Source: an uncultured Candidatus Saccharibacteria bacterium (GTDB lineage: Bacteria > Patescibacteriota > Minisyncoccia > SW-4-49-11). Taken from it: a DNA stretch of 64,000 nucleotides. The stretch covers positions 166,967 through 230,966 of the forward strand of contig CAZPCB010000002.1 in the NCBI GenBank assembly GCA_964585065.1, written 5' to 3'. A program made the position numbers and the translations under genes. This document shows, one piece after another, positions 5,428-39,805 of this stretch. Position 1 is the first letter of the stretch. Each line of letters begins with the position of its first letter. The notes below the pieces were generated by a model. It did no database searches. It saw only the letters and a program-made list of their open reading frames with translations, and had not been told where the DNA came from.

Positions 5428-6231
5428 ATGAAAATAATCAAAGAACAAGAATTCATACAGCTTGTTTGGGATTATTATTATCAGCATAAGAGACCCATGC
5501 CTTGGAGGGATAATACCAATCCCTATTGGGTTATTGTCTCTGAGATTATGCTACAGCAAACTCAAGTAGCGAGAGTTCTTGAGAAATTCCCTATATTCAT
5601 AAAGCAATTCCCAAGTTTTGAAGTTTTGGCAGAATCTAGTCTTTTGGAAGTATTGCAGGCTTGGCAGGGATTGGGTTATAATCGGCGAGGTAAATATCTT
5701 TGGCAAATTTCCCAAAAGATAATGCAGGAATATGATGGGGTTCTACCAGATAATCCTGATATATTAATTCATTTTCCTGGTATTGGTAAGGCTACAGCTG
5801 CTTCAATTATAGCCTTTGCTTATAATAAGCCCACCATATTTATTGAGACAAATATTAGGCGAGTTTATATTCATCATTTTTTCTCTGAAGCAGAGAATAT
5901 TCCGGATAATGATCTAATTCCTCTTATTGAGAAGACAGTATCTAAGGATAATCCAAGAGAATGGTATTATGCTTTGATGGATTATGGAACTTATCTGAAA
6001 ACTCAAATTAGTAATCCTAATCGTAAAAGTAAACATTATACTCGCCAAAGTGTATTTGAAGGTTCTAATAGACAAATACGTTCACAAATTATCAAACTAT
6101 TATTACAAGGACCAAAAACTTTGTCTGAGATACAAGATATGATTTCAGATAGTAGGGTTCAAGATAATATAGAATCTTTAGTAAAAGAAGAATTAATAAA
6201 AAAGGAGAAAAATCAGTATATAATTCGTTAA
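5428..6231 (+). CDS. HhH-GPD base-excision DNA glycosylase (MutY/endonuclease III-like)
   Basis: PWR..NPYWVIVSEIMLQQTQV motif and helix-hairpin-helix region. No C-terminal 4-Cys Fe-S cluster motif visible. Confidence 0.7.
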   Translation: MKIIKEQEFIQLVWDYYYQHKRPMPWRDNTNPYWVIVSEIMLQQTQVARVLEKFPIFIKQFPSFEVLAESSLLEVLQAWQGLGYNRRGKYLWQISQKIMQEYDGVLPDNPDILIHFPGIGKATAASIIAFAYNKPTIFIETNIRRVYIHHFFSEAENIPDNDLIPLIEKTVSKDNPREWYYALMDYGTYLKTQISNPNRKSKHYTRQSVFEGSNRQIRSQIIKLLLQGPKTLSEIQDMISDSRVQDNIESLVKEELIKKEKNQYIIR

Positions 6232-6279
6232 ATAGTAACATTTATGCTATACTATATGTAATATAATGTAGTATAATAT

Positions 6280-8636: not shown

Positions 8637-8642
8637 TATATA

Positions 8643-10262
8643 TTAATGCTTATATCCTTTACGAATATATTCTAATACCATGCGCTGAGTATTATAATAG
8701 CTTCCAATGAGGGATATTGCAGATCTTTGCATTCGGGTAAATTTTTCTCTATTATTATAAAATACATCTAGAGCATTCCCAATATTATCATACATACTAT
8801 TGATTTCCTGATACTCGTCTTCCCCCGATATTGTCCATCCATTAACATGATGTATACCACTTTCAGGCCACCAACCATCATAGGTGGATATATTGAGCAC
8901 TCCATTGAGAGAGGCCTTCATACCACTAGTTCCTGAGGCTTCATAGGATATACGAGGGGTATTAAGCCAAACATCTACACCACTAACAAGAAGTTTGGAC
9001 AATTCCATATTATAATTGGGTAAATACATAATTTTGAGATAATCGTTAGAATGCTCTTTGGCAATATCTAATATTCGTTTAATAATATCAAATCCTACAT
9101 TATCGGTGTGATAGGCCTTCCCTGCAAAAATAATATTAAGTCCTTTATATTGCTCAGCAAGTTTAGCCAGTCTCTCAATATCAGAAAATATAAGATGAGC
9201 TCTTTTGTACTCAGTAGCACGACGGGCAAATCCTATGGTGAAGGCATTGGGTAGAAAATTGATATCAGGCTGTTGTTTGAGATATTCAGCTAATATATCT
9301 TTATTGATTTGATGAGCTTGTTGTATATCAGCAATTGGAATCCCATCAATATAGCGTAAAATTTCTGGATGTGTTTCCCAGCTAGGATAATATGATTGAA
9401 ATACTTTATTCATAGATTCAGAAATCCAAGTATGACTATGAATTCCATTAGTAATAGAATCAATTATGTGTTCTGGAAACATAGCCTGAGATACTTCTTG
9501 ATGTTTTTGGGAGACGGCATTAGAATAATCAGCAAGAGACAAAGCAAGTCGCGTAAGATTAATAGTATGCTCATCTTCAAAGGCATCTTTTGGTAAATGC
9601 TGTAATTGCTCTGATGTACATATTCCTTGTAACCATTCTATAGGAAGACGAGTATGCCCGCCCAGAAGGGGAGTATGAGTAGTGAATACTACCTGAGAAA
9701 TAGGATGATCAATCACCAGTGAAATAAGGGCACTATGGCTTTCATTGAGATGAAAGGTATCAATATTATTAAGCCCAAGACTATCAAGAGCATATTTGCT
9801 CCCAAGTCCTAATATGAGTAATTGTCTTCTGAATATTTCGGGATCTGGGGAATATACTTTATCGGAAACTGCTCTGAATAAATCTGAATTCTCAGGTAAA
9901 TCAGTATCTAATAAAAGTATGGATACTGATTTATTAGAAAGAGAAGAAGTATAACTATATTCCCAAATATTGATTTGTACGGTTTCCTGTGCAAATTGAA
10001 TACTTGTTTTCCCAATTAGATTGAGTAATTTGGTATAATCCCATTCTTGAGGATTTGCAATTTGCCCTTGCTCAGCATCTAATACTTGGTCTAGATATCC
10101 ATGTTTATATAATATCCCAACACCAATTACAGGAAGTCCCAAATCAGCAAAACTTTTCATAGTGTCTCCAGCCAAAATTCCAAGACCTCCAGTATAAATT
10201 TTGATATCATCAGAAAGCCCAAATTCCATACAGATATAGGCGGTACTCGGGATATAATTCAT
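8643..10262 (-). CDS. Alpha-glucan phosphorylase (GT35 family, short maltodextrin/glycogen phosphorylase type)
   Basis: N-terminal FGLSDDIKIYTGGLGILAGDTMKSFADLGLPVIGVGILYKHGY is characteristic of the alpha-glucan phosphorylase family. Confidence 0.8.
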   Translation of the reverse strand: MNYIPSTAYICMEFGLSDDIKIYTGGLGILAGDTMKSFADLGLPVIGVGILYKHGYLDQVLDAEQGQIANPQEWDYTKLLNLIGKTSIQFAQETVQINIWEYSYTSSLSNKSVSILLLDTDLPENSDLFRAVSDKVYSPDPEIFRRQLLILGLGSKYALDSLGLNNIDTFHLNESHSALISLVIDHPISQVVFTTHTPLLGGHTRLPIEWLQGICTSEQLQHLPKDAFEDEHTINLTRLALSLADYSNAVSQKHQEVSQAMFPEHIIDSITNGIHSHTWISESMNKVFQSYYPSWETHPEILRYIDGIPIADIQQAHQINKDILAEYLKQQPDINFLPNAFTIGFARRATEYKRAHLIFSDIERLAKLAEQYKGLNIIFAGKAYHTDNVGFDIIKRILDIAKEHSNDYLKIMYLPNYNMELSKLLVSGVDVWLNTPRISYEASGTSGMKASLNGVLNISTYDGWWPESGIHHVNGWTISGEDEYQEINSMYDNIGNALDVFYNNREKFTRMQRSAISLIGSYYNTQRMVLEYIRKGYKH

Positions 10263-10310
10263 TGTATTTGTATTATGTATATCTATTAGTATAGCATATT
10301 ATTGGGATAA

Positions 10311-10332
10311 CAAAAAATCCCCTTATCGGGGA
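10311..10332 (-). terminator. Intrinsic terminator after rpmA (UCCCC-GAUAA-GGGGA + U-run on the minus strand)
   Basis: Hairpin TCCCCttatcGGGGA preceded on the + strand by an A6 run. Confidence 0.5.
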
Positions 10333-10353
10333 CATCTTGTTATGAGAGCTAAT

Positions 10354-10626
10354 TTAGATTACAGATACTGTTTTGATGATATGCTTTTTTCCAGTAAATG
10401 AAACTTTACGAGCTTTTCCAAATTCAATAACTCCATTTGCAATTGCATATAATGTGTCATCTGCTCCACGAGAAACATTTTTTCCAGCATGAAATTTAGT
10501 TCCACGTTGTCGAATAATGATATTCCCTTTTTCTACTTTTTGTCCAGCATATAGCTTAACTCCAAGATATTTTGGGTTTGAATCTCTACCTAAGGCTGTA
10601 GAACCACCAGCTTTTCTATGTGCCAT
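10354..10626 (-). CDS. rpmA: 50S ribosomal protein L27
   Basis: [24 protein letters not shown]...[13 protein letters not shown]. Start moved to the internal ATG at 10626. Confidence 0.9.
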
Positions 10627-10663
10627 ATCAAATAATGTTACTATATATGGTATAATAATACAT

Positions 10664-11047
10664 ATGAAATACCAATTTGTCAAGAATAGTGAAATTGTAC
10701 TGTTGATTATATCTGCAATATTGATAGGAGGGATTGCGTATTTTATTGGAAAAATTCAAACTTTAGAATCCCAACCAAATACAATACAAGTTGTGTATCC
10801 AGATGCTATTGCAATAAAAAAGGATACTATCAATACGTCTAATCAAGCCGCGGCCCACATCAATAGTACTATTGAGACAAAATTACAAACAGGTAAAATT
10901 ATAGCGAGTAAAAATGGAAAACGATATTATTATGAATCCTGTAGCGGTGTAAATCGTATTAAGCCAGAAAACAGAATATATTTTGATACGAAAGAACAAG
11001 CTGAAGCCAAGGGATTAACTATTGCTTCTGGATGTAAAGCCTTATGA
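10664..11047 (+). CDS. Small membrane-anchored protein with C-terminal Cys-pair module (YYYESCSG...IASGCKAL)
   Basis: Start at the internal ATG at 10664, immediately after a TATAAT box. N-terminal TM helix. Stop overlaps the next start (ATGA). Confidence 0.45.
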
Positions 11048-11853
11048 GAAAAACCTATATTCCCCGAACATATACCAAAAAGAAATCACCTGCTCGCAAA
11101 GCAAATCGATTCATAGAAATATTCCAATTTTTTATTTGGATTATATTTTTTGGGGGAATTGGATATGCCTTATATTCACCCATATTAAATATTGTGAATA
11201 TAGATATTCGAGTAGATAATGAAATATTACAAAAAAATATTAAATCAAAGTCTGAAGATTTAATACAAGCTCATAATCATTGGTATTATAATAATAAGAA
11301 TATTCTCCTTGCTCGTAGTGATATTCTTGAGAGAGAATTACAAAAAGAATTCCCACAAATTAAACATATTACTATTAAAAGGACAATAAATCGTTCATTG
11401 GAACTCACCATTCAACTTAGAAATCCCTTATTCACTATTTGTGAAAATACTATCTGCTCCAATATTAGTGATGATGGCGTCAATATTGGTAATGATTCTC
11501 TATCGGCTTCACTCATATCATTAACTGGGATTACTCCTAAGTCTCGTGGAGAAATTGTAGTTTCAGAGAGAGAAATAGCTTGGTTTAAAACTATTGTGGA
11601 AATGTATAATCAAATTGATGGCGTAAAAGTATCCTCAATTGCCATACAGCAAAAAGCAGAGAATAGAATATTGGGGGTATTCGTCTATACAGAACAAGGA
11701 TATTATATTATGCTAGATTTAGATACAGATATTATTTATCAAGCAGGGGCTTTAAAACAAGTCTTTATATCCCAGCTGCCTCCAGATCAAAGGCCTAATC
11801 TTCAATATATTGATTTACGGGTAAAGGATAGAGTATATTATAAGTTTAAATAA
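11044..11853 (+). CDS. FtsQ/DivIB-like cell division protein (POTRA-type)
   Basis: Basic N-terminus, single TM segment, then POTRA-like region (ILLARSDILERELQKEFPQIKHITIKR). Confidence 0.4.
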   Translation: MRKTYIPRTYTKKKSPARKANRFIEIFQFFIWIIFFGGIGYALYSPILNIVNIDIRVDNEILQKNIKSKSEDLIQAHNHWYYNNKNILLARSDILERELQKEFPQIKHITIKRTINRSLELTIQLRNPLFTICENTICSNISDDGVNIGNDSLSASLISLTGITPKSRGEIVVSEREIAWFKTIVEMYNQIDGVKVSSIAIQQKAENRILGVFVYTEQGYYIMLDLDTDIIYQAGALKQVFISQLPPDQRPNLQYIDLRVKDRVYYKFK

Positions 11854-11856
11854 TGT

Positions 11857-13650
11857 ATGAAACAGCATATTATCAAGTGGTATAATAAAATTCCCCTATG
11901 GGGATATGTTTTAGGTATTACGATAATACTTGCTGTGTTGGCATTTGGATCAAGTGCTGGAGATTCGTTAACAGTTGATGAAAGTCCTCATATTGGAGCT
12001 GGATATTCATATATTGCAAAGGGGGATTATCGACTGAATCCAGAACATCCACCTTTATTAAAAATGTTATCAGGGTCTTCTATTTGGCTTGGAGCAAAGC
12101 TCACGGGGAATACCGTTAATTTCCCAGATACTATTCCTGCTTGGACAGAAAAGGTTAATGCCCAATGGGATATTGGATATGCATTTCTCTTTCAATCAGG
12201 TAATGATGCTAATACTATTATATGGTGGGCTCGACTACCAACTATATTGATATTACTTTTAGGAGGGATTTATTTGACCTATTCGGTATATTATCATACT
12301 AAGAGTAAAGCTATTAGTGTTATTACCATTATATTATATGCATTTTCTCCTAATGTAATTGCTCACGGACGTCTTGTGACAACTGATATTATTGCAAGTA
12401 TGTCATTTATTATTGCTATTGATATTTGGGTGCGTTATCTCAAAAATCCTACCATTAAATATATTGGTTTACTTATTGTAGCTATATCATTTGCCTTTTT
12501 GTCTAAATTTTCTACTATTCTTTTATTGCCATTATTTTTTATGACCGGATTTGGGTATATTGCAGTAAAGTATTGGGGTAAAAAAAATATAATACGTAAA
12601 GGTGGTATTCTATTGCGAGATGCCCTTATTATAGCTATGGGAGTATTTGTAATTATCAATGGAGTATATTATTATACTATGCGAAATATGAGTGTTGATA
12701 CACAAATGAAATTAATTCAAGAATCATTCCCGCAAGATAATGCTATATCTCAAATTACAAAAAACAGTTTATCCCAGGTGGTTAATACTCCAGGGCTACA
12801 ATATTTTGGACAATATCTTTTAGGTCAGTCTATGGCAATACAAAGAGTAGGTGGGGGGAATACTACCTTTTTATTAGGGAGATTTACTAATCAGAGTTTT
12901 ACTGAGTATTTTCCAATCACCTATATATTAAAAGAACATTTAGGTATACTTGCGGTATTAGCAAGCTTACTACTAGTGAGTATAGTTCTTGGGATTCGAG
13001 CTATTCAGCATAAAAAGTTGAAATTCAATAGAAAATGGTTGCTCAAATACTGGTATGAATGGACGATAATCACTATGATACTCTTATATTGGTTTATTAG
13101 TATAAGAGGGAATTTGAATCTTGGAATACGACATATATTACCTGCCGTCATATTAACTTATATAATTATTGCTATTGGAATTGTACGTATATTATTACCT
13201 TTGAAATTTTCAAAAATAATTCTTGGTATATTTTTGATATGGTATATTGCTGCCACATTACTTGCATATCCTTCTTATCTCTCTCATTTAAATGTATTGG
13301 CAGGTCATGATCAAGGCTATCAAATCTTTACTGATTCTAATCTTGATTGGGGTCAGGACTTAAAACGATTGCATACATGGACGAAAGAGCAAAATATTGA
13401 TACACTATATATAGATTATTTTGGAACTGGAGATGTGAAATATTATCTTCCAGATATCAATATAATACCAGTAAAATCGAATGATGGACCTAAAATTGGC
13501 TATACTGCAATTAGTGCGACTATGTTTCAAGATTCATTTTATCTGAAACAAAAAAATCCAAATTATCAAGAATATTGGTGGTTAGCATGGAAAAAGCCAG
13601 ATTATATTATTGGGAATTCCATATTAATTTATTATAATAGCAGATATTAA
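11857..13650 (+). CDS. GT-C family glycosyltransferase (ArnT/PMT-like, GT39/GT83-type)
   Basis: Polytopic membrane protein. N-terminal loop DESPHIGAGYSY...NPEHPPLLK is typical of ArnT/PMT transferases. Confidence 0.65.
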   Translation: MKQHIIKWYNKIPLWGYVLGITIILAVLAFGSSAGDSLTVDESPHIGAGYSYIAKGDYRLNPEHPPLLKMLSGSSIWLGAKLTGNTVNFPDTIPAWTEKVNAQWDIGYAFLFQSGNDANTIIWWARLPTILILLLGGIYLTYSVYYHTKSKAISVITIILYAFSPNVIAHGRLVTTDIIASMSFIIAIDIWVRYLKNPTIKYIGLLIVAISFAFLSKFSTILLLPLFFMTGFGYIAVKYWGKKNIIRKGGILLRDALIIAMGVFVIINGVYYYTMRNMSVDTQMKLIQESFPQDNAISQITKNSLSQVVNTPGLQYFGQYLLGQSMAIQRVGGGNTTFLLGRFTNQSFTEYFPITYILKEHLGILAVLASLLLVSIVLGIRAIQHKKLKFNRKWLLKYWYEWTIITMILLYWFISIRGNLNLGIRHILPAVILTYIIIAIGIVRILLPLKFSKIILGIFLIWYIAATLLAYPSYLSHLNVLAGHDQGYQIFTDSNLDWGQDLKRLHTWTKEQNIDTLYIDYFGTGDVKYYLPDINIIPVKSNDGPKIGYTAISATMFQDSFYLKQKNPNYQEYWWLAWKKPDYIIGNSILIYYNSRY

Positions 13651-14124: not shown

Positions 14125-16548
14125 ATGATAATTGTACTCTATGTACTGCTAGTGCTATGGGTTATTGCTATAACATTTATTATAGCAACGGTTATTATAC
14201 ATCCATTTTGGGAAAAACGTCGTATTAATCGGGGACTTGCAATGACACAATATCAAATTATTGTACCTCGCAATATCCCTAATCCAGAAGCTAATATCAA
14301 AGATTTAATTAGTGTGATGGAACAGGTATATGCGGGGTTCTCTTATCTCAAATTAGAGAAATTAGTCAATCGTCTTAGATATGGGAGTCCTTATATTTCT
14401 CTTGAAATTGTAAGCCCTACCGAGCGAGATGAAATTAATTTTTATATTGGAGTTCCAAAAGGGTATGAATCTATTTTTGAAAAACAAATTCATGGAGTAT
14501 ATCCAGAAGCTGAGCTGAAGCATATTACCGATTATAATGTATTACTCCCTGAAGGAGAAATTCGGGCCGGATACTTACAGCTTAAAAAACCCTATATTCT
14601 CCCTATTAGAACCTATAAAGAATTAGAAACTAATCCTTTGAATGTGATTACCTCGGCTCTGTCTAAAATTCAGGAAGATGAAAGTGCAGTGGTACAGATT
14701 TTAATACAAAGAGTATCGGATGATTGGAGTAGTAGTGGTAAGAAGGTAGTGAAAAAAATGCAAAAAGGAGAAAGCTTCAAAAATGCATATAATGAAGTTT
14801 TTGGGGGGATTGATAAGCAATTTTTGAAAACTTTAGGTTCTGCTACAAAGTCTAAATCAACGGAAGTCTCTGAGCCAAAAATGTTAAGTCCTCAGGAGTC
14901 TATTATGATGGAGAAAATTAGTCAAAAAACAGGTAAAATTGCCTATGCGACTAATATTAGATTATTAACTATATCTCGAGATAGCCAAAGAGCAGATGTA
15001 TTATTTGATCAATTAGAGGGTGCTTTTTCTCAATTTGCCAATGGAGATCTGAATCAATTTAAAGTAATCAAATATCCTATAAAGAATATTAAACAATTTA
15101 TTTATACCTTTATATTCCGATTATTCTCAGTAAAAGAATCAATGTTATTAAATAGTGAGGAATTGACGAGTATATATCATATTCCTGCTGTGGGAGTGGA
15201 GACTCCAAAAGTAACTTGGATTACTTCTAAAACCTCACATCCTCCAGTTGATTTGCCAAAGGAAGGATTATTATTAGGGAAGAATATATATCGTGGTGAA
15301 GAAATTGAGGTAAGAATTGCAGAAGAGGATAGGAGACGTCATATGTATCTTATTGGACAAACAGGAACAGGTAAAAGTTCTTTGATGAAAAAAATGATAC
15401 AAGAAGATTTGCAAGCAGGACATGGTCTTGCTCTATTAGATCCTAATGGAGATTTTGCCGTGGAAGTATTGGGTATGATTCCAGAGCATCGTATGCAAGA
15501 TGTGATTTATTTTAATCCTGCTGATACTAATTATCCTATGGGACTTAATATTCTGGAAGCCCGCACACATGAGGAAAAAGATTTCTTGATACAAGAAATG
15601 ATTTCTATTTTTTATAAATTGGTATCTGATCCAAGTATGATAGGGCCAATATTTGAGCATAATATGCGAATGGCAATGTCAGCTTTAATGTCAGATGTCA
15701 ATAATCCAAGAACTCTGGTAGAAATACCTCTTATGTTTACTGATGAGGCATTTAGGAGACAAGTATTATTAACAGTTGACGATCCTGTCATACGGCATTT
15801 TTGGGAAAAAGAATTCCCTGCTACACAAAAAGGATCTCAAGCAGGAGATACACTTGGATATCTATTGAGTAAATTAGGGCGATTCATAGAAAATGAAATG
15901 GTACGTAATATTATTGGGCAATCTCGTTCAGCCTTTGATTTTCAAGATATTATGAATTCAGGTAAAATTTTGATTGGTAATCTTTCTAAAGGAGGGTTGG
16001 GAGAACAGAATAGCAATTTATTAGGTATGTTACTGGTATCCAAATTACAAATGGCAGCCTTTAAGCGAAATGAAATTCCAGAAGAACAGAGAAGAGATTT
16101 TTATTTGTATTTAGATGAGTTTCAAAACTTTACCACAGATAGTATATCTACCATTCTCTCTGAGGCTCGCAAATATCGATTATGTCTCATATTGGCCCAT
16201 CAATATATAGGACAATTATCTGAGGGGATAAAGAATGCAGTATTTGGGAATGTGGGTACTGTGGTGAGTTTCCGTATTGGCTCCGAGGATGCTGAAATTA
16301 TTGCTCAGCGTATGCAACCATATTATAGTGCTGAGGATTTAGTGTCAATTGACAATCTAAAGTCAGTAATAACCTTGATGATACAGGGTAAGACCAGTAA
16401 AGCTTTTAATATGGATATTATATTCGCTGATAAGACGAATGCATCTTTACAACAACGGGTAATATTAGAGTCTCGCAATAAATATGCCAAGCCGGCAGCT
16501 GAAATACGAGCGGATATATCGAGTCGTACGCAAAGTATGTTCGAATAG
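14125..16548 (+). CDS. Type IV secretion/conjugation coupling protein-like ATPase (VirD4/TrwB/TraG family)
   Basis: N-terminal TM helix. Walker A HMYLIGQTGTGKSS followed by LLDPNGDF, matching the TrwB GATGTGKS...IVDPNGD arrangement. Walker B-like YLYLDEFQNF. Confidence 0.6.
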   Translation: MIIVLYVLLVLWVIAITFIIATVIIHPFWEKRRINRGLAMTQYQIIVPRNIPNPEANIKDLISVMEQVYAGFSYLKLEKLVNRLRYGSPYISLEIVSPTERDEINFYIGVPKGYESIFEKQIHGVYPEAELKHITDYNVLLPEGEIRAGYLQLKKPYILPIRTYKELETNPLNVITSALSKIQEDESAVVQILIQRVSDDWSSSGKKVVKKMQKGESFKNAYNEVFGGIDKQFLKTLGSATKSKSTEVSEPKMLSPQESIMMEKISQKTGKIAYATNIRLLTISRDSQRADVLFDQLEGAFSQFANGDLNQFKVIKYPIKNIKQFIYTFIFRLFSVKESMLLNSEELTSIYHIPAVGVETPKVTWITSKTSHPPVDLPKEGLLLGKNIYRGEEIEVRIAEEDRRRHMYLIGQTGTGKSSLMKKMIQEDLQAGHGLALLDPNGDFAVEVLGMIPEHRMQDVIYFNPADTNYPMGLNILEARTHEEKDFLIQEMISIFYKLVSDPSMIGPIFEHNMRMAMSALMSDVNNPRTLVEIPLMFTDEAFRRQVLLTVDDPVIRHFWEKEFPATQKGSQAGDTLGYLLSKLGRFIENEMVRNIIGQSRSAFDFQDIMNSGKILIGNLSKGGLGEQNSNLLGMLLVSKLQMAAFKRNEIPEEQRRDFYLYLDEFQNFTTDSISTILSEARKYRLCLILAHQYIGQLSEGIKNAVFGNVGTVVSFRIGSEDAEIIAQRMQPYYSAEDLVSIDNLKSVITLMIQGKTSKAFNMDIIFADKTNASLQQRVILESRNKYAKPAAEIRADISSRTQSMFE

Positions 16549-20445: not shown

Positions 20446-20528
20446 GCTGGTGTGGTGGAATGGTAGACACGAAGGACTCAAAATCCTTTGGAGGTAACTC
20501 CGTAACGGTTCAAGTCCGTTCACCAGCA
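20446..20528 (+). tRNA. tRNA-Leu (anticodon CAA), type II with long variable arm
   Basis: Acceptor GCTGGTG/CACCAGC. Anticodon stem AAGGA/TCCTT with loop CTCAAAA. Variable stem GGAG/CTCC. T-arm AACGG-TTCAAGT-CCGTT. No encoded CCA. Confidence 0.85.
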
Positions 20529-20534
20529 CAAGTA

Positions 20535-20598: not shown

Positions 20599-22482
20599 TT
20601 AATCTAGGGTACCAATATAATTATATCGAGCTATATACATATCTCTATTACTAGTAGGTGTGAGTGAGATTTGATTAGTACCGCCAATACCAAATGTTGC
20701 AAAACTATTAAAGTCTCCCGCTATTACAAAACCTCCCAGTACCTTCCCAATTGCTATTCCTCTATCTGAACCCATTCCTCCAGCTCTTCGAGCCCAAGCA
20801 AGAGTCCCATCAGTATTATATTTAGCTATAAATACATCATCACTACCACTACTGGTCAGAATAGTCTGATTTGTTTCTCCCGGTCCAAAAGTAGCTGTTC
20901 CATTAAATTGCCCTGTTATAATACTACTTCCATCTATATTCCTCATTATATCAAAACTGCTATCATCATTTAGGCCCCCAGCTTTTTTAGCCCAGATTAA
21001 ACTACCATTATCACTATATTTAGCTATAAATATATCTGAACCACCACTGCTACTTAAGATGGTTTGATTTGTCTCTCCTGGTCCAAAAGTAGCTGTTCCT
21101 TGAAGGTTTCCTATTATAAGACTATCAGTATTAGGTAATGTTCTAACTGCTATGGGGCCATCCCAACCAATTCCACCAACCTTTCGAGCCCAAGCTAAGG
21201 TTCCATTAGTATTATATTTGGCTATAAATCCATCTATATCAGTAGTATTCGTCAATATAGTTTGATTTGCTTCTCCTTGTCCAAGAGTAATATTTCCATA
21301 AAAAGCTCCAATTATGATAGAGCTACCATCATTTAACATACTAACTCCTGTACTATCATCTATATCTGTACCACCAGCTTTTCGAGCCCAAGCAAGAGTC
21401 CCATCAGTATTATATTTAGCTATAAAAGCATCTCTATTCCCAGCATTAGCTACTAGAATAGTCTGATTTGTTTCTCCCGGTCCAAAAGTAGCTGTTCCCT
21501 GAAAGTATCCTACACTAATACTAGTCCCATCAGATAAAGTACTAATACCATAGCCACGTCCATAATCTCCTACTACACTACCAGTAACTCCTTTAGCCCA
21601 AGCAAGAGTCCCATTGGCATTATATTTAGCTATAAATGTGTTATTTGAGATAATACTATTTAATGTTGTTTGATTTGTTTCCCCTTGTCCAAACACTGCA
21701 GTCCCACTAATATAACCCGTTGTAATACTGCTCCCATCAGGAAGACAGCTAATACCATAGCTTATATCATAGTCATTTCCTCCATCCCGCCTAACCCAAG
21801 CCAAACTACCATCGATATTATATTTGGCTACAAATATATCATATCCACTCCCAACAGATGTACGTATGGTCTGATTTGTTTCTCCTGGGGCGAAGGTTGC
21901 ATTTCCTTGAAATAATCCTGTCACTATACTGCTCCCATCAGAATTAGTACACATTCCCCCTGTATTAATAATTTCTCCAGGACTTCCCCCAGCCCGCTTT
22001 GCAAAGTTAACTGGTGTTGCTGGAAGGGTAAAAGTTGTACTTTGAGATTCAGAAGTGAAAGTGGTATTATCAACACTATTAATTCCTCCCACTCCAATTT
22101 TACCATTTGTACTTTTTACTATATAAAAACCACTATTATTGATATCGGTGGAATATGAAGGGATGCTCGCAATATAATTGGGTACTAATACAGATAAATT
22201 TACCTTACCCGTACAAGAGGGTGCTCCTGTTTTACAAATTTCTAGAGAACTACCAGCAGGAACATTCTGGACATCAGTAGGATAAGCTCCAGTTTTGAGT
22301 GCATATTGTTCTATAGCTTGATAGAGAGTAAGGGCATCAGCTTTACGCTTATTGTCATTGACTTCAGTAATAATTCTACTTGGATTAAGAGTATATAATA
22401 CTGTAGCAAAGAGAACAGCAAGTAGAGCAATAACAAGAAGTATTTCGAGTAGGGTAAAACCTTTTTTTGTATAGGGTTTCAT
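20599..22482 (-). CDS. Type IV pilin-like protein with C-terminal SBBP-type beta-propeller repeats (putative pilus adhesin)
   Basis: Prepilin N-terminus MKPYTKKGFTLLEILLVIALLAV (class III signal, GFTLLE). About 8 tandem repeats of the form G..D.S.GIS.L.DGSSI..G.F.GTATFGPGETNQTIL....DAFIAKYN.DGTLAWARK.GG. Confidence 0.7.
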   Translation of the reverse strand: MKPYTKKGFTLLEILLVIALLAVLFATVLYTLNPSRIITEVNDNKRKADALTLYQAIEQYALKTGAYPTDVQNVPAGSSLEICKTGAPSCTGKVNLSVLVPNYIASIPSYSTDINNSGFYIVKSTNGKIGVGGINSVDNTTFTSESQSTTFTLPATPVNFAKRAGGSPGEIINTGGMCTNSDGSSIVTGLFQGNATFAPGETNQTIRTSVGSGYDIFVAKYNIDGSLAWVRRDGGNDYDISYGISCLPDGSSITTGYISGTAVFGQGETNQTTLNSIISNNTFIAKYNANGTLAWAKGVTGSVVGDYGRGYGISTLSDGTSISVGYFQGTATFGPGETNQTILVANAGNRDAFIAKYNTDGTLAWARKAGGTDIDDSTGVSMLNDGSSIIIGAFYGNITLGQGEANQTILTNTTDIDGFIAKYNTNGTLAWARKVGGIGWDGPIAVRTLPNTDSLIIGNLQGTATFGPGETNQTILSSSGGSDIFIAKYSDNGSLIWAKKAGGLNDDSSFDIMRNIDGSSIITGQFNGTATFGPGETNQTILTSSGSDDVFIAKYNTDGTLAWARRAGGMGSDRGIAIGKVLGGFVIAGDFNSFATFGIGGTNQISLTPTSNRDMYIARYNYIGTLD

Positions 22483-25208: not shown

Positions 25209-25865
25209 ATGAGCGATATAACAGAAAATAATTTTATTGGAAAAGGAATACTTATTGTTACGGTATTAGTAGTGATAGGTGCTATTGTTTGGGGACTTAA
25301 TACTCAAAGTTCAGGATCTCGTAATGTAAATGTAGAAGTTACAGATGAGGATACTTATCTTGGAAATAAAGATGCCAAAGTTACTCTAGTAGAATATTCT
25401 GATTTTCAATGTCCTGCATGTAAGGCTTATGAAGATATTGTGAAACAACTTCGGGATTCTTATAGTCCAGAGGATTTAAAATTTGTATATAGACATTTCC
25501 CACTTCGTAGTATTCACCCTAATGCTGATATTGCCGCTCAAGCTGCCGAAGCTGCAGGTGAGGAGGGGAAATTCTGGGAAATGAAATCTCTCTTATTCGA
25601 AAAACAATCTGAATGGGAAAAGGAAAAAGATCCTAAGGGATTATTCGGAGCTTATGCAAAATCATTAGGAATAGATGTAGGTAAATTTGATGAGGATTTG
25701 AAAGCAGATGACGATTCAAAAGAGCGAGTAGAAAAAGATTATCAATCAGGAGTTGCTCTTGATATTGCCTCTACACCCACCTTTATACTAAATGGAGTAA
25801 TTATCAAAAACCCTCAAAGTGTTGATGAATTCAAATCTCTTATTGATGCTGAACTCAAGAAATAA
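25209..25865 (+). CDS. Membrane-anchored DsbA-family thiol:disulfide oxidoreductase
   Basis: N-terminal TM anchor. Thioredoxin fold with CxxC active site (DFQCPACKAY). Confidence 0.65.
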   Translation: MSDITENNFIGKGILIVTVLVVIGAIVWGLNTQSSGSRNVNVEVTDEDTYLGNKDAKVTLVEYSDFQCPACKAYEDIVKQLRDSYSPEDLKFVYRHFPLRSIHPNADIAAQAAEAAGEEGKFWEMKSLLFEKQSEWEKEKDPKGLFGAYAKSLGIDVGKFDEDLKADDDSKERVEKDYQSGVALDIASTPTFILNGVIIKNPQSVDEFKSLIDAELKK

Positions 25866-27267: not shown

Positions 27268-28218
27268 TTATACTTTATTATCTTCTTCTAATTTATGAAT
27301 ATAGCTATAAGCTGATAAGGCGGCTTTGACAGCGTCTCCAGCGGAGATATTATTTTGCTTATAAGCTTCATCGGTTATATCTCCGGCGGCGAATATTCCT
27401 GCTTGTGAAGTAGTGCCATATTTATGATCTAGTATGATTTCTCCAATTTGATTGGTATTAACTAGATGCTTGACTATATCTGAATTCGGAAGAGATCCAA
27501 TTTCAATAAATAACCCTGTAATAGCAAGCTCACTGTTCTCTTGTGTTTTGAGATTCTGATAATGAACTCCTGTCATTAATTTTTCTCCGAATATATCAGT
27601 GACTACCGTATTATAAAGTATACCTTTGAAATTAGGGTGTTTTTGAATTTTCTCAGCAGTTTGAGGGTCTCCCTTTAGTTCATCACTACGATTAAAGAGA
27701 TAGACTTCACTGGCATAGGATAGTAAATCTAATACACTTTCGAGACCCGCATTTCCTCCTCCCACGACAGCTACTTTTTGTCCTTCAAAAAACGGAGCAT
27801 CACAAGTAGCACAATAAGCTACACCTTTTGCGGAGAATTCTGCCTCTCCAGGAATATCTAATTTGCGACGATGTGCTCCCATACCAAGAATTAAGGTTTT
27901 AGTTTGAAAGGTTTTACCTCCTTCAGTCACAATTTCATATACAGGGTAGGGGCTTTCACTAATTTGATTAATACTGATAACTTTATCTATTAAAGTCTCA
28001 AGTCCTGATTGGGCTTTGATATGCGCCTCAAACTTTTGGGCTAAATCAAATCCAGAAATTCTAATATCTCCAATCCAATTATCAATATCATTAGATACTA
28101 CTGATTGCCCTCCAAAACCATCGGTAATAAGTATGGCTTTTAATTGTTTGCGGGCGGCATATATAGAGGCGGCAGTTCCTGTAGGCCCTCCTCCAATAAT
28201 AATAGTGTCATAAATCAT
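27268..28218 (-). CDS. trxB: Thioredoxin-disulfide reductase
   Basis: FAD motif IIGGGPTGTAA, redox-active CATCD, NADPH motif VVGGGNAG. Confidence 0.9.
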   Translation of the reverse strand: MIYDTIIIGGGPTGTAASIYAARKQLKAILITDGFGGQSVVSNDIDNWIGDIRISGFDLAQKFEAHIKAQSGLETLIDKVISINQISESPYPVYEIVTEGGKTFQTKTLILGMGAHRRKLDIPGEAEFSAKGVAYCATCDAPFFEGQKVAVVGGGNAGLESVLDLLSYASEVYLFNRSDELKGDPQTAEKIQKHPNFKGILYNTVVTDIFGEKLMTGVHYQNLKTQENSELAITGLFIEIGSLPNSDIVKHLVNTNQIGEIILDHKYGTTSQAGIFAAGDITDEAYKQNNISAGDAVKAALSAYSYIHKLEEDNKV

Positions 28219-28301: not shown

Positions 28302-29045
28302 ATGGGAAATAAATCAATTTTATTAGTAGTAGCTTCCATTTTACTTTCAGGTATGATGATTGCAACAGCAATAATATTCAATGGATATCAGAGTAGAAGT
28401 AATAATAATACGGCTACGAATGATTTACCACAAGTTGATAATAATGACCCAGTAGAGGCGCGCGATATTAATGTTGATATTTCTGATGATACTCCATATC
28501 TTGGAAAAAAATCAGAGGCCAAAATTGCAATTATAGAGTTTAGCGATTATGAATGTCCTTTTTGTAAAAAATTCCATGAAGGAGCAAGACCTGATATAAT
28601 TGACAAATATGTAAATACTGGAAAAGCAATATTAGCTTGGAAAGATTATCCATTAGAATTCCATGATCCTCTTGCAACCAAGCAAGCGATAGCAGCTCAA
28701 TGTGCATATGAACAAAAAGGAAATGAGGGATATTTTGCATATGCTGATTTGATATTCAATAAAACTGAAAGTGGTGGAGATGGAATGAAAGAAGAAGAAT
28801 TAAATATATTAGCTAAAGGGATAGAGGGGCTTGATACTGCGAAATTTGATACTTGTCTGAAAGAAGAAAAAACTCTCAATAAAGTAAAAGCAGGTACAAA
28901 ATTTGGTAATGATAATGGAATTACGGGAACTCCTGGATTTATTATTGGAAAATTAGAAAATGGTAAATTAGTTGGGGGTATTCGAATTGCAGGGGCTTTA
29001 CCACTCGCAACATTCCAAGGATATCTTGATGACCTTTTGAAATAA
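28302..29045 (+). CDS. Membrane-anchored DsbA-family thiol:disulfide oxidoreductase (second copy)
   Basis: TM anchor and CxxC motif FSDYECPFCKKFH. Confidence 0.65.
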   Translation: MGNKSILLVVASILLSGMMIATAIIFNGYQSRSNNNTATNDLPQVDNNDPVEARDINVDISDDTPYLGKKSEAKIAIIEFSDYECPFCKKFHEGARPDIIDKYVNTGKAILAWKDYPLEFHDPLATKQAIAAQCAYEQKGNEGYFAYADLIFNKTESGGDGMKEEELNILAKGIEGLDTAKFDTCLKEEKTLNKVKAGTKFGNDNGITGTPGFIIGKLENGKLVGGIRIAGALPLATFQGYLDDLLK

Positions 29046-33624: not shown

Positions 33625-34905
33625 ATGATTGGATATGCCATTAGTTTAGTCACAAGACGAAAATTAAGAACAATATTAACGAGTTTAGGTATTACTATTG
33701 CAGTTATTCTATTATCTTTGATTATTTTTGGAATGCAGGATCTTAAAAAATTATTAGTGAGTGCCATTCAGACACAATTCAAATCAAATGAAATATTTAT
33801 TTCTAATTCCGGGGGAGCTGGAGTTTTTGCGCCTCCATCAGCTGAAGAAACTGATGCGAATGAAACTACGCTTATTACTCAAGATGTGGTGAATAATATT
33901 AAAAAAATAGAAGGGGTAGACAATACAGTACCTGTTACTATTGTGAATAATCTTGAGATTAAAGTAGACGGTAAAGATAAAGCCTATAGCCCAGCTTTTA
34001 TATCGGGATGGGATATAAAGGGAGATGACACCTATTTTACTGATTTCTGGGGAGATAAAAGTAAGCCAGAAGGAAATAGTATTTTTGTTTCAAAATCAGT
34101 AGCTGAATTCTATGATATTAAACCAGAAGATTTAATTGGGAAAAAAGTAAGTTTTATTACCTCAAAAAGTGCTTTATTTGGCACAGTGAAAACTAAGGAA
34201 ATTCTCGATAGGAAATTCGACTATACTATCAAAGGAGTATTTGACCCAGGGTCAGATCGCAATGATGCTATTGTTTCCCTTGATACTTCTGTGGCAATTC
34301 TCACCGATATTGGCGGATTTGATTCTAAAGATGAATATATTTCATCAGTAGGATATGATTTACTTCGAGTAACAGGGGATGAGGCTAATATTAAAGGTAT
34401 TAAACAGGAAATAAAAGATACATATAATTTTAAAGGAATATTTACCGCAGATGATGTATTAGGATTCTTGAATCAAATTATTCAGGCCTTTACTATTGCT
34501 CTTATAGCATTTGGTACCATATCAGCAGTGATTGCAGCCATTGGAATTACCAATACTATGGTAATGAGTATTTATGAGCAAACCAAAGAAATTGGTATAT
34601 TAAAGGCAATGGGAGCATCTAATGGACAGATTTTAGGAGTATTCTTGATACAATCAGCTTTAATCGGATTATTAGGAGGTATAGTTGGGCTATTCGTAGT
34701 AATTGCAAGTATGCAAATTGGAAATATATTTATTGTACAACAACTCAAAGACATTGGTTTTGAAGTTGATACATTTTTCCATTTTAATCTTGGCTCAACT
34801 CTGATAATTGTAGCGATAAGTATATCTATTGGAATATTAGCAGGAATTTACCCGGCTCTTAAGGCTGCTACACTCAATCCAGTAAAAGCTTTAAGATCAG
34901 AATAA
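33625..34905 (+). CDS. ABC transporter permease, FtsX/MacB-like
   Basis: N-terminal TM segment, large periplasmic domain, C-terminal 3-TM FtsX-type module. Confidence 0.75.
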   Translation: MIGYAISLVTRRKLRTILTSLGITIAVILLSLIIFGMQDLKKLLVSAIQTQFKSNEIFISNSGGAGVFAPPSAEETDANETTLITQDVVNNIKKIEGVDNTVPVTIVNNLEIKVDGKDKAYSPAFISGWDIKGDDTYFTDFWGDKSKPEGNSIFVSKSVAEFYDIKPEDLIGKKVSFITSKSALFGTVKTKEILDRKFDYTIKGVFDPGSDRNDAIVSLDTSVAILTDIGGFDSKDEYISSVGYDLLRVTGDEANIKGIKQEIKDTYNFKGIFTADDVLGFLNQIIQAFTIALIAFGTISAVIAAIGITNTMVMSIYEQTKEIGILKAMGASNGQILGVFLIQSALIGLLGGIVGLFVVIASMQIGNIFIVQQLKDIGFEVDTFFHFNLGSTLIIVAISISIGILAGIYPALKAATLNPVKALRSE

Positions 34906-34955
34906 TTATACAAAGATCAAAAATAGGGTATAATAGAAAAAGATAAAATATAAAA

Positions 34956-36206
34956 ATGCAAAAAAAAGGGTTTACATTATTAGAGGTATTACTGGTTATC
35001 GCTTTAATAGGGATATTATTGACTATTATATTGGTAGTCCTCAATCCAAGGGAGCGTTTTGCTGTAGCTCGTAATGATGTTAGGAAATCTGATATACAAA
35101 AATTAGAAGGAGCTCTTACCCAATATCGCTTACAAGAGGGATCCTATCCTGCGGGACTTACTTCAACCTTACAAGAAATTTGTGACCCAGATATTAGTAA
35201 TCCTTCCGTAAATTGTGGTAGCTATATTAACTTATCATCTCTTGTCCCAACTTATATTCAATCCATACCACAAGATCCCCAAGACACTGATTCAACAGGA
35301 GGTTCTGGATATCAAGTTGCGGTAGATGTGACACGAAATGTAGTAGCACTAAAAGCAATACAGGCAGAATCCTCAGCTACAATATCTATTAATGACCCCT
35401 TATCATCGGCTCTACCAAGTACAGCGGTAAATACACCACTTGCAGCAAGTAACCCTTCCATAACTAGTCAAACTCCACCTTTAGTACCTAATACAGGAGA
35501 TGTATCGCTACTGCTCCATGCGGATGGTAGTTTTGCGGACAGTAGTCCTAATAATTTTGTTCCAATGAGTACTGGAGGGACTCCCGGAGTGAGTGGCGAG
35601 GGGGTGCAAATTAGTACTACTCAGAGCAAGTTTGGTGGTTCAAGCCTATTCTTCCCAGATGTGGACATAAATAATGCCCCCTATCCTGCGTTGTCATATT
35701 GGACACCTGAGTCTGGTGGATATAATTATTTCCCTGAGTTTAGCCTAGGAAATACTTATACAATTGAAGCATGGGTCTACGCAATTACACCCAGGGGAGG
35801 AATAGTTGAGAGGCTTGCTGGAGCTTTTTCACAGGAATATGGGTACTCTATGACGTTTGAAGGAGCACGAATAAAATGTTACTTTTACGGAACCTTCGAC
35901 GGTTCAGGATTTCAACAGTATATCTTAGCTCCTTCTGCATTTCCCACCTCAACCTGGGTTCATGTAGCGATGGTTCGTAGTGGAACAAACGGAGCCTTAT
36001 ACATTAACGGTGAGTCAGTTGGTACTATAAATAATCTTAACACTCCGCAAGGAAGTGTTAAGCCGGTTCGTATAGGTTCAAAAAGTGTTGGAAGCGGAGG
36101 AAATTATAACACTATCTTCTTCAACGGTTACATAGATGATCTACGTATCACTAAAGGAGTTGCCATATACACCTCTAACTTCACCCCACCTACTTCAGCT
36201 TTTTGA
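34956..36206 (+). CDS. Type IV pilin-like protein with C-terminal LamG/concanavalin A-like lectin domain
   Basis: Prepilin N-terminus MQKKGFTLLEVLLVIALIG. C-terminal 160 aa has the LamG_3 pattern (TWVHVAMVRSG..ALYINGESVG...FNGYIDDLRITKG). Confidence 0.65.
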   Translation: MQKKGFTLLEVLLVIALIGILLTIILVVLNPRERFAVARNDVRKSDIQKLEGALTQYRLQEGSYPAGLTSTLQEICDPDISNPSVNCGSYINLSSLVPTYIQSIPQDPQDTDSTGGSGYQVAVDVTRNVVALKAIQAESSATISINDPLSSALPSTAVNTPLAASNPSITSQTPPLVPNTGDVSLLLHADGSFADSSPNNFVPMSTGGTPGVSGEGVQISTTQSKFGGSSLFFPDVDINNAPYPALSYWTPESGGYNYFPEFSLGNTYTIEAWVYAITPRGGIVERLAGAFSQEYGYSMTFEGARIKCYFYGTFDGSGFQQYILAPSAFPTSTWVHVAMVRSGTNGALYINGESVGTINNLNTPQGSVKPVRIGSKSVGSGGNYNTIFFNGYIDDLRITKGVAIYTSNFTPPTSAF

Positions 36207-36269
36207 TGGGTTATATGTGACCACTTTTTCTGTTGATTAAAGAATTATTATTACCGCTAGAGTAGTATA

Positions 36270-36455
36270 TTGATCAGAGGTGATGGGTCTCGAGGTAATA
36301 CCTTTAATATCGGGGCAGGATTTACGAGTACTGCTCAGAGTATTATACAACAAAATGATGGGAACTTCGTTATAGGTGGCTATTTTGCTACTTATCAAGG
36401 AGTAGCAGAAGCTTATATAGCTCGTCTTAATACAGATGGAAGTAGTGCTCAGTAA
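36270..36455 (+). pseudogene. Remnant of a beta-propeller repeat (IARLNTDGS-type) with no proper start
   Basis: The ORF opens with TTG and has no ATG. The translation GYFATYQGVAEAYIARLNTDGS resembles one blade of the repeat in the pilin at 20599-22482 (FIAKYNTDGT). Confidence 0.35.
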
Positions 36456-36517
36456 GATATTACCCTATCTTTTTTATCATAAATATTCTATACTAGGTCT
36501 AAGATAATGTATTATAT

Positions 36518-37180
36518 ATGAGTATTATAGTTCCCGCGATATTGGCAAGTACCAAACAAGAATTCCGAGAATATCTCAATCAAATTAAATCTGTAGCTCA
36601 TAATATTCAAATAGATATTATGGATGGTGAATTTGTGGAGAGTAAATCTTTATTCCCGAGAGAGTTTTTCTATGAAGATTTTGGAAGTCTCAAAGTGGAA
36701 ATTCATATTATGGCTACTTTCAAAAATACCCAAGATATTATTGAAAGCCTAAAATCATTTGCTCCTCTTACTCGTATTATTGTACATCAAGAAAGTTGTG
36801 AAAATCTTGAGCAATTGCGTCAATTAGTAAATCAAGTAAAGGGTATTAATAAAGAGATCTCTATTGCAATTAACCCCGATACTGATATACGAGATATTGG
36901 TAAAGTAGTAAAGAAAATTGAAGGAGTACAATTCATGGGTGTTAATCCCGGATTTTATGGAGCAGCATTACAAGAAAAGGTTTATAATAAAGTAACTGAA
37001 TTCAAAGAGCGTTATACTATGTATGAGGGAGATATAGCTTGGGATGGGGGAGTTAATAAAGACAATATTAGGACTATTCAAGATTTAGGTGTGAATCGTA
37101 TTGCTATTGGAAGTGGTATATTCAAATCAGATAATCCAGCTCAAAGTTATCAGGAATTAATTATTCTATTAAAGGCATAA
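36518..37180 (+). CDS. rpe: Ribulose-phosphate 3-epimerase
   Basis: IDIMDGEFV, VNPGFYG, IAWDGGVN and IAIGSGIF match the RPE TIM-barrel motifs. Confidence 0.7.
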   Translation: MSIIVPAILASTKQEFREYLNQIKSVAHNIQIDIMDGEFVESKSLFPREFFYEDFGSLKVEIHIMATFKNTQDIIESLKSFAPLTRIIVHQESCENLEQLRQLVNQVKGINKEISIAINPDTDIRDIGKVVKKIEGVQFMGVNPGFYGAALQEKVYNKVTEFKERYTMYEGDIAWDGGVNKDNIRTIQDLGVNRIAIGSGIFKSDNPAQSYQELIILLKA

Positions 37181-38539: not shown

Positions 38540-39805
38540 ATGCAAAATAAAAAAGAAAAAGGCTTTACATTATTGGAGATATTACTAGTAATAGCAGTAA
38601 TAGGAATATTAGCAGCTATAGTATTAATTGCTATTAATCCTAATAAACAAATAGCGCAAGCTCGTAATACTGCTAGGAAAGTTGATATTAATACATTAGA
38701 AAAAGCCTTAAGACAATATTCTATAGATAATGCAGGTCAGCTCCCAAATGTAATACTGAATCAATATAAAGTAATTTGTAGACAAGGTATTACTGATCCT
38801 TCTTGTATTAATCTTGATGTTTTGGTACCCACATATATTGCGGCTATTCCTCGGGATACACAATCAAATACTATTAATACAGGATATTCGGTAGCAGTAA
38901 ATCCCAATAATACGAATGTTTCTATTGTTGCAAATTTAGCTGAACAGTTTGTAGAAATTTCAATTAATAAATTTAATGAAGGAAGTGGTGCTTCGGCTTT
39001 ATTAGCAGCTAATTCTTGTCAATCTATTTTGTCTTCTGGATACTCAACTGGAAATGGAGTATATTGGATTAATTTACCTACTTCAGGTGCTACACAGATA
39101 TATTGTCTTATGGATACATTATTTGATGGTGGTGGCTGGATGTTGGCTATGAAAGCTACTCGCGGCACTACATTTAATTACGACTCTGCTCATTGGACTA
39201 CAACAACAACATTAAATCCCACCGATCTAACGAGAAACGATGCGGATGCTAAGTATCATACTATGAACTATTACCCCACCAGGGATTTAATGGCCGTGTG
39301 GCCAGATATCCCAACAGCTGGAGGAAGTATTCCTAATACTGGAAGCTGGACTTGGTTGGAAAAGAATTTTTACAATGGTGGTAATCGAACTACTCCTATA
39401 AATTTCTTTAGCACAATGGGAACATATAATAATGGCGGAACACCTAGTACGGGTGATTATGGCGGCTATTTTATTAAAGACGCTAAGACATTTAGTGGCT
39501 GGGCAAATGGTGTGTTTTCGAGCCAGGTAGATATTAGATTTTATGGATTCAACTTTATCAATCATCCTAATTACGGATTTAATGGTAGAGTCCGTTGGGG
39601 ATTTGGATGGAATGAGAATGGTGAGGGACTATATACTAGTCCTGCTACACTAGCCACCGGCTGGGCACCTGGGTCGGATGACGTAAGTGGTGGTATAGGT
39701 ATGGCAAGTCAATTTGGTAGTTATTCAGCTGGAGATATAATTAACTGCTGTCAAGATAATACAGGTATAAACCGATCCGCTAGAGTTGAATTATATATTA
39801 GATAA
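38540..39805 (+). CDS. Type IV pilin-like protein with C-terminal fibrinogen-related domain (FReD)
   Basis: Prepilin N-terminus MQNKKEKGFTLLEILLVIAVIG. The segment NSCQSILSSGYSTGNGVYWINLPTSGATQIYCLMDTLFDGGGWMLAMKATRGTTFNY matches the FReD core pattern C..G.SGvY.I.P...VyCDM.tdGGGWT..Q.R.dG..F. Confidence 0.7.
   Translation: MQNKKEKGFTLLEILLVIAVIGILAAIVLIAINPNKQIAQARNTARKVDINTLEKALRQYSIDNAGQLPNVILNQYKVICRQGITDPSCINLDVLVPTYIAAIPRDTQSNTINTGYSVAVNPNNTNVSIVANLAEQFVEISINKFNEGSGASALLAANSCQSILSSGYSTGNGVYWINLPTSGATQIYCLMDTLFDGGGWMLAMKATRGTTFNYDSAHWTTTTTLNPTDLTRNDADAKYHTMNYYPTRDLMAVWPDIPTAGGSIPNTGSWTWLEKNFYNGGNRTTPINFFSTMGTYNNGGTPSTGDYGGYFIKDAKTFSGWANGVFSSQVDIRFYGFNFINHPNYGFNGRVRWGFGWNENGEGLYTSPATLATGWAPGSDDVSGGIGMASQFGSYSAGDIINCCQDNTGINRSARVELYIR

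Follow-up and report, generated by a model that had tools for sequence, protein, structure and literature searches.

A 64,000-nucleotide stretch of DNA (hereafter the window) was analysed, taken from contig CAZPCB010000002.1 (positions 166,967 to 230,966, forward strand) of assembly GCA_964585065.1, which is deposited as an uncultured Candidatus Saccharibacteria bacterium (GTDB lineage Patescibacteriota; Minisyncoccia; SW-4-49-11). At 34956..36206 on the plus strand it carries a modular type IV pilin gene, recognised from its open reading frame (ORF) and from Pfam and NCBIfam matches, which encodes 416 amino acids (aa) plus the stop codon; an identical copy of the protein (P0001) is on record in NCBI and Logan. 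The initial annotation had described the product as a pilin with a C-terminal LamG domain. A Pfam search bore this out, matching N_methyl at aa 2-26 (2.7e-6, 27.2 bits, cutoff 21.2) and Laminin_G_3 at aa 254-400 (3e-20, 73.4 bits, above the gathering cutoff of 27.6). In addition, the NCBIfam model IV_pilin_GFxxxE (TIGR02532) was matched with 29.5 bits (cutoff 16.3). An AlphaFold2 model, built on a 70-sequence alignment and reaching a mean predicted local distance difference test (pLDDT) score of 74.4, divides the protein into four parts, namely an alpha-1 helix (8-61), a beta-sheet (116-145), a disordered segment (152-178) and a beta-sandwich (183-416).

The N-terminus reads MQKKG followed by FTLLEVLLVIALIGILLTIILVVL. 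The leader is short and basic and closes with Gly; Phe occupies +1 and Glu +5, and the stretch behind them is hydrophobic. MQKKG and the adjoining FTLLE thereby show the features of a type IV pilin leader (charged and ending in Gly, Phe or Met at +1, Glu at +5), and a class III (prepilin) signal peptide, cleaved after Gly5 by prepilin peptidase, is predicted. The leader peptide MQKKG (34956..34970, plus strand) was read from the sequence with the support of N_methyl and IV_pilin_GFxxxE. It is followed by the alpha-1 helix (aa 6-61; 34971..35138, plus strand), which starts with FTLLE and passes from a hydrophobic alpha-1N to an amphipathic alpha-1C. In the AlphaFold model this region forms helices at 8-28 and 31-61 with pLDDT 80-93, and its sequence matches the N-termini of GspG 5wda, geopilin and PilE. 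The globular part of the pilin module (aa 62-148; 35139..35399, plus strand) comprises a Cys76-Cys87 loop, the segment LVPTYIQSIPQDP and beta-strands ending in ISINDP, a block that is conserved in 25 relatives; strands are modelled at 116-124, 129-134 and 143-145. The predicted structure, with pLDDT mostly 62-93 across the module, thus combines the hydrophobic alpha-1N, the long alpha-1 and the small beta-sheet domain of a pilin fold. By sequence, the best match of the module in the PDB is GspG 5wda (2.5e-6).

Behind the pilin module lies a flexible linker of about 45 residues (aa 149-195; 35400..35540, plus strand), identified from its composition, its low pLDDT and the break in homology. The low-complexity S/T/P linker of the initial annotation was thereby confirmed, an S/T/P/A-rich composition being found over aa 149-196; residues 152-178, with pLDDT 35-40, are predicted to be disordered, and this segment coincides with the point where homology to relatives breaks. 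The remainder is a LamG_3 or concanavalin A (ConA)-like beta-sandwich effector module of about 25 kDa (approximately aa 196-416; 35541..36203, plus strand), supported by Pfam, PHROG, Foldseek and the PDB. The LamG_3 pattern had been placed in the last 160 aa; the pattern is there, and the size was an underestimate, as the AlphaFold model, the PHROG coverage (aa 161/178-416) and the alignment with tandem LamG proteins all point to a module of about 220 aa. When the modelled sandwich was compared with the PDB by Foldseek, all 50 listed matches had a probability of 1.00, with E-values of 3e-8 to 2e-6 overall, consistent with a predicted jelly-roll. Those listed include Limulus pentraxin 3flp, the sialic-acid-binding CBM40 2v73, laminin LG 1qu0, agrin G2 3pve, perlecan LG and the Hcn domain of botulinum neurotoxin (BoNT). 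The best PDB match by sequence is a LamG-type S-layer-associated protein, 4qvs (7e-7). With N_methyl and Laminin_G_3 both over their cut-offs, and two modules with a disordered linker between them, the protein is a modular pilin as defined by Raynaud et al. (2021).

The window has a G+C content of 34%, and the genes around the pilin are housekeeping genes, encoding RuvA, RpiB, transketolase, an ABC/FtsX pair, Rpe, a Mur ligase and MurA. A promoter-like site, TATACA-16-TATAAT (34907..34934, plus strand; 10/12), lies in the 50 nt that separate ftsX from the pilin gene; it is the best-scoring sigma-70-like match within 34600-36700 and, being a consensus match only, is not evidence of function. 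No RNA elements were found by Rfam or ARAGORN in the 311-nt gap downstream. Reference genomes were scanned with the family-specific part of the pilin module (a 123-aa query from a 7-sequence alignment), which returned eight loci, all of them in metagenome-assembled genomes of Paceibacteria, Parcubacteria or Patescibacteria. The best of these, on the sister contig from a Lake Mendota Candidatus Paceibacteria bin, is 99% identical over the 123-aa query and 97.6% over the whole pilin, and the bacterium that carries the window is accordingly assigned to Candidatus Paceibacteria. All eight loci are syntenic with the window in the order RuvA-RpiB-Tkt-ABC-FtsX-[pilin]-Rpe-Mur ligase-MurA, with flanking proteins that are mostly 73-100% identical and with RpiB down to 66% in some.

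The slot between FtsX and Rpe was found to be fixed across 12 related contigs. The pilin modules that it encodes are 51-99% identical, and their C-terminal parts fall into four groups or are absent. LamG-A, the type seen in the window, recurs in the sister genome (L002; JBIIRM01). A second LamG_3 type is present in L005, L006, L007 and L009; its members are 38-48% identical among themselves and, where similarity is detectable, 23-26% identical to LamG-A, L005 having no significant match. The other two groups are a Gly_rich_2 domain in L003 (P0005) and an unassigned 257-aa domain in L004. Between L006 and L007 the pilin module is 92% identical and the effector 48%. Pairwise BLAST gave the same picture, with relatives 75-82% identical from aa 1 to about 150-165 and unrelated beyond. 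A first protein search had returned many prepilins with PF13385. Further fusions were seen both on close pilin modules (75-83% identical), which carry Gly_rich_2 (P0005), an ArabFuran-catal-like segment (P0012) or two LamG domains (P0002), and on distant ones (about 46-55% identical), which carry ALK_LTK_GRD with F5/8-type-C (P0029) or PA14/GLEYA with LamG (P0030). A search with the pilin module alone drew on 108 candidates and gave short proteins only; modular relatives were not re-listed in it, so that it is no census of effector modules. Among its results are plain pilins, 155-172 aa long, which share 77-81% identity with the module. Two of these, P0126 and P0128, occupy the same slot (L010-L014) and both end in INDPLPTAP, while P0127 and P0129 stop shortly after entering the linker. 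Across related genomes, the pilin module in the slot is kept and the effector is exchanged, fast-diverging or absent. This agrees with the earlier suggestion of a modular family of pilus-displayed binding domains, since pilin modules of the same type outside the window bear different domains or none; display on a pilus is presumed.

The additional DNA at this locus can be delimited. A cassette of about 1.08 kb (35423..36503, plus strand), made up of the linker, the LamG module and a downstream remnant, is present here and missing where related genomes have a plain pilin in the slot; in blastn comparisons of the window with L010 and L013, homology stops at about 35422 and restarts at about 36504. 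The remnant is a 61-aa ORF with a TTG start (36270..36455, plus strand), which corresponds to a single DUF5122/delta-60 propeller blade (PF17164 match on record) and has stop codons just upstream. Besides the window and the sister genome, it was not found in the other syntenic loci. As it is 88.5% identical in the sister genome, against 97-100% for real genes, this ORF is probably the decaying remnant of a former, displaced effector module of the propeller type. Furthermore, the G+C content at third codon positions (GC3) of the LamG module (35541-36206) is 0.33, compared with 0.22 in its own pilin module and 0.20-0.23 in neighbouring genes. In a second plus-strand pilin gene of the window, described below, the fibrinogen-like effector part (38990-39805) has a GC3 of 0.28 against 0.12 in its pilin module. 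These elevated values fit, and hint at, a foreign origin of the effector parts of both plus-strand pilins.

The closest relatives of the LamG module that are not pilins measure about 680 aa and contain three LamG domains in tandem; their single repeats are 35-40% identical to the effector, over roughly half of the query or more, and they have neither a signal peptide nor a pilin module. Residues 161/178-416 of the pilin match phrog_24074 (1e-29) and phrog_3545 (2e-28), and further PHROG matches are to families labelled baseplate wedge (phrog_13163, 'baseplate wedge subunit'), virion structural and tail fibre protein; the three-LamG proteins match the same PHROG families at 1e-90 to 1e-178. One of them, P0040, is encoded in a 157-kb contig beside genes for Phage_tail_APC, T4 gp13, gp14, gp15, terminase, sheath, tube and portal proteins, a set that forms the tail/baseplate block of a T4-like phage, in which a relative with 36% identity is located. 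The effector is thus of a LamG subtype that phages employ where they contact the host, which supports a role in cell-surface binding by inference. The LamG-repeat tail and baseplate proteins of T4-like phages match the same PHROG families as the pilin effector; unlike it, they are virion parts and not filament subunits. The 157-kb T4-like phage contig L015 encodes at 1925-12040, in its baseplate/tail region, three consecutive large LamG_3 proteins of 984, 888 and 679 aa, the last of which ranks among the nearest relatives of the LamG module outside the pilins.

A six-frame motif scan of the window found exactly three prepilin N-termini, at 34956 (plus), 38540 (plus) and 22482 (minus), which span 19.2 kb; all three pilins are modular. 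The second (38540..39805, plus strand; 421 aa) bears a fibrinogen-like module with the motif YCDxxxxGGGW (GGGWT_bact, 41.9 bits, cutoff 30). The third (20599..22482, minus strand; 627 aa) bears a beta-propeller of the delta-60/DUF5122/SBBP type with six to seven blades (DUF5122, 29.5 bits, cutoff 27), seen in the DNA as six to seven repeats of 198 nt. The proposed divergence into propeller, LamG and fibrinogen modules is therefore upheld by the DUF5122/delta-60, Laminin_G_3 and GGGWT_bact matches. The same annotation had counted three pilin-like genes within 20 kb sharing their first 60 aa; the number and the spacing held, and the shared part proved longer. The three N-termini align well past the signal peptide, the whole module of about 148 aa being covered by MAFFT, with pairwise identities of 39-47% (blastp, 117-146 aa aligned). 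The module of the LamG pilin is 47% identical to that of the fibrinogen-like pilin and 40% identical to that of the propeller pilin. Common to all three are C76 and C87, the LVPTYIxSIP motif and the beta-strands after it. Intragenomic recombination of the Neisseria pilS type among the three genes was considered and rejected for the window, where they have no DNA repeats of at least 25 nt in common; the internal 198-nt propeller blades were the only repeats found in the comparison.

The fibrinogen-like pilin gene, between the Mur ligase and MurA genes, occurs only in the window and the sister genome L002. It was not found at that position in L004-L007 and L009-L014, the contigs that cover it. 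As the Mur ligase and MurA genes are adjacent there, the gene appears to be a lineage-specific insertion. Another pilin-like ORF was observed in L004 (10508-10765), downstream of MurA. Near the propeller pilin, a tRNA-Leu(CAA) gene (20446-20529, plus strand) lies 70 nt from the 3' end of the pilin gene; tRNA genes are common integration sites. Two DsbA/Thioredoxin_4 paralogues with a common short DNA repeat are encoded at 25209-25865 and 28302-29045, both on the plus strand, near a thioredoxin-reductase-like gene (27268-28218, minus strand) and an AhpC gene. These two DsbA-like genes could be responsible for the Cys76-Cys87 disulfide of the pilin modules.

Modular pilins were defined by Raynaud et al. 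(2021; PNAS, PMC8179133), whose survey counted over 1,200 such proteins with 264 different architectures. In its Dataset S1, IPR012902-PF13385 is the commonest architecture, with 229 proteins and the representative A0A0G0IU57 from Candidatus Magasanikbacteria, a member of the Candidate Phyla Radiation (CPR). CPR organisms are prominent among the listed representatives, and a carbohydrate-binding role was predicted. The pilin described here resembles these proteins in its prepilin motif, small pilin module, short linker and LamG_3 domain, with no architectural difference. Both the architecture and the concept are already published, and the form found here is the commonest known design. For the two paralogues, the entries to be compared are IPR013431, which we take to be the delta-60 repeat, and IPR002181, presumably the fibrinogen C-terminal domain. 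Dataset S1 also contains IPR012902-IPR013431 x2 (4 proteins) and IPR012902-IPR002181 (8 proteins). The catalogue counts domains and leaves genomic context aside, and it lacks the features that are added here, namely a fixed slot whose alleles are either plain or modular, the latter of several kinds, a cassette that includes a remnant, and a phage-type LamG module.

Several characterised systems can be compared as well. Shahin et al. (2023; PMC9934059) showed glycan binding by the ConA-like module of the minor pilin PilC of Streptococcus sanguinis (PDB 7OA7/7OA8) and placed PilC at the tip of the pilus in a model. PilC shares with the present pilin a short pilin moiety and a C-terminal ConA-like lectin module, and differs from it in having an Ig-like module between pilin and lectin, where the present protein has a disordered linker, and in being encoded in a 22-kb pil operon rather than among housekeeping genes. 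PilC was found neither among the PDB sequence matches at E<=1 nor among the 50 listed Foldseek matches. In view of this and of the missing Ig module, the protein is not a PilC homologue, and the likeness is functional and architectural only. In Nanosynbacter lyticus TM7x, the C-terminal domains of the minor pilins PilX1 and PilX2 are L-type-lectin-like and PLL propeller-lectin-like, respectively; sugars inhibit host binding in Saccharibacteria, and binding of host cell-wall glycans by PilX1 and PilX2 was proposed, not shown directly (PMC11623550). By published description, this is the same pair of folds (ConA-type lectin and beta-propeller) as in two of the three window pilins, and again in the CPR; TM7x belongs to Saccharibacteria, whereas the closest relatives of the present pilin are Paceibacteria, a different class. 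Finally, (pseudo)pilins of the GspG/ComGC type give the best curated-model and solved-structure matches to the pilin module (TIGR01710, PF08334, PDB 5wda), with alpha-1 and a small beta-sheet in common. Only this Paceibacteria group has the C-terminal half of the module (Cys loop, LVPTYIxSIPxDP), and classical GspG and ComGC have no extra domain. Identity with GspG, the major pseudopilin of the type II secretion system (T2SS), was examined and rejected, as TIGR01710 reached 45.2 bits against a cut-off of 88.85 and PF08334 reached 20.8 against 21.

Altogether, we consider it likely that the gene encodes a modular type IV pilin whose tethered LamG domain serves as a lectin or adhesin on a type IV filament. 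The data themselves show how the domains are arranged, the fold, the synteny, the polymorphism of the modules and the affinity of the LamG module to phage proteins; processing, assembly, filament position and ligand we infer. The prepilin would enter the membrane by its class III signal peptide, and prepilin peptidase would remove MQKKG and methylate Phe1. The hydrophobic alpha-1 helix and Glu5 would then allow the 148-aa pilin module to polymerise, together with other pilins of the cell, into a type IV filament, from which the disordered S/T/P linker of about 45 residues would hold off the 25-kDa LamG beta-sandwich. The subunit would most probably be located at or near the tip as a low-abundance (minor) component, by analogy with S. 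sanguinis PilB and PilC. There the LamG domain would serve as a lectin or adhesin and probably bind glycans on the surface of another microbe, most likely the host, as the organism is presumably an episymbiont. Display of the propeller and fibrinogen-like paralogues would follow the same scheme, giving several binding specificities on one filament system.

Some observations weigh against this interpretation. No PilB, PilC, PilD, PilM or PilT genes were found within the 64-kb window, so that the assumption of filament assembly relies on general knowledge: type IV pili are widespread in the CPR. The model of the effector has weak pLDDT at 195-213 and 242-257, and the overall value of 74.4 is only moderate. 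No residues for sugar binding were assignable in it, LamG domains also bind proteins, and carbohydrate binding by this one is putative. Minor and major subunits both come into question, and the plain orthologues of 155-172 aa in some relatives could be major pilins. This last point leads to an alternative in which the slot gene encodes the major pilin itself, so that every subunit would carry a LamG domain on its linker and the filament would be lectin-coated along its whole length instead of bearing a tip adhesin. According to Raynaud et al. (2021; PMC8179133), a linker such as this one of about 45 residues could permit a location in the filament body. Glu5 is kept, the gene has a promoter-like site of its own, all three pilins of the window are modular, and plain pilins with 77-81% identity stand in the same slot of related genomes. 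Yet the view is limited to 64 kb, and plain pilins may be encoded elsewhere in the genome; to our knowledge, no major type IV pilin has been described that bears a whole additional domain of 25 kDa. PilB, PilC, CofB and TcpB, the modular pilins that have been characterised, are minor subunits at the tip (PMC8179133; PMC9934059), and a lectin-coated major pilin is accordingly held to be quite improbable.

It also seems unlikely that the signal peptide merely anchors or exports the lectin, either in a short pseudopilus (Com/T2SS-like) or in a 'bindosome'-type assembly like that of archaeal sugar-binding proteins, with no extended pilus being formed. The similarity of the module to GspG and ComGC-type pseudopilins (TIGR01710 and T2SSG among the models, PDB 5wda among the structures) and the lack of assembly or retraction genes in the 64-kb window would suit such an arrangement, but the GspG and T2SSG scores stay under their curated cut-offs, and in CPR cells, which lack an outer membrane, a T2SS would have none to cross. 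Extended type IV pili with lectin-like minor pilins have moreover been shown in Saccharibacteria (PMC11623550). A further question is whether the ConA-like module could be catalytic, making the protein a pilus-displayed glucanase or other glycoside hydrolase rather than a binding protein. The ConA-like superfamily does include GH16, GH7, GH11 and GH12 enzymes, and one pilin relative carries an ArabFuran-catal-like segment. Models of TM7x PilX1 and PilX2 also resembled carbohydrate hydrolases (PMC11623550). Nevertheless, the great majority of the top 50 fold matches listed are binding domains without catalytic function, including a non-catalytic domain of the arabinanase AbnA; the exceptions are whole-enzyme entries (AbnA, dimethylformamidase) with very high root-mean-square deviation. 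By sequence the module belongs to LamG_3, and its relatives in phages have structural roles; a catalytic function is regarded as very improbable.

A more far-reaching proposal can be made for the locus, which we put forward tentatively and with considerable doubt. The FtsX-pilin-Rpe slot of these Paceibacteria might act as a fixed 'socket': one effector cassette after another would replace its predecessor on a single orthologous pilin, and some cassettes (like this LamG) would come from the same pool as the receptor-binding modules of phages. The choice of host-cell glycan to which the episymbiont attaches would then depend on the module present, as a host-range switch comparable to the swapping of phage tail fibres. 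In a stronger form of this proposal, the slot may encode the major pilin and the whole filament may be lectin-coated.

Elsewhere in the window, IleRS, GyrB, ParA/B, RuvX, a GT2 glycosyltransferase, RadC, a signal peptidase, S21 and YbeY were recognised by eye only. An 807-aa protein (14125-16548, plus strand) matches TrwB_AAD_bind and DUF87, in the manner of a VirD4/TraD-like coupling ATPase, and is possibly part of the conjugation-type type IV secretion system described in Patescibacteria. Directly after ftsA, at 61028-63052 on the plus strand, lies the gene for a highly acidic, coiled-coil-looking protein of 674 aa with no Pfam match at E<=1e-5.

CPR bacteria (Patescibacteria) are mostly uncultured episymbionts, in which host recognition is an open question and type IV pili are the leading candidate. 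The gene described here adds a clear example from Paceibacteria to the lectin-like pilins recently implicated in Saccharibacteria. The series of alleles in one slot (plain pilin, LamG type A, LamG type B, Gly-rich domain, unknown domain and remnant) shows the 'grafting' of effectors onto a pilin, links one module to phage tail proteins and provides concrete alleles for testing the role of the effector in host specificity. The general understanding of pilins is unchanged by these results, which may be of some use for work on host recognition in the CPR. Should the socket proposal be true, the module present would set the host-cell glycan to which the episymbiont attaches.

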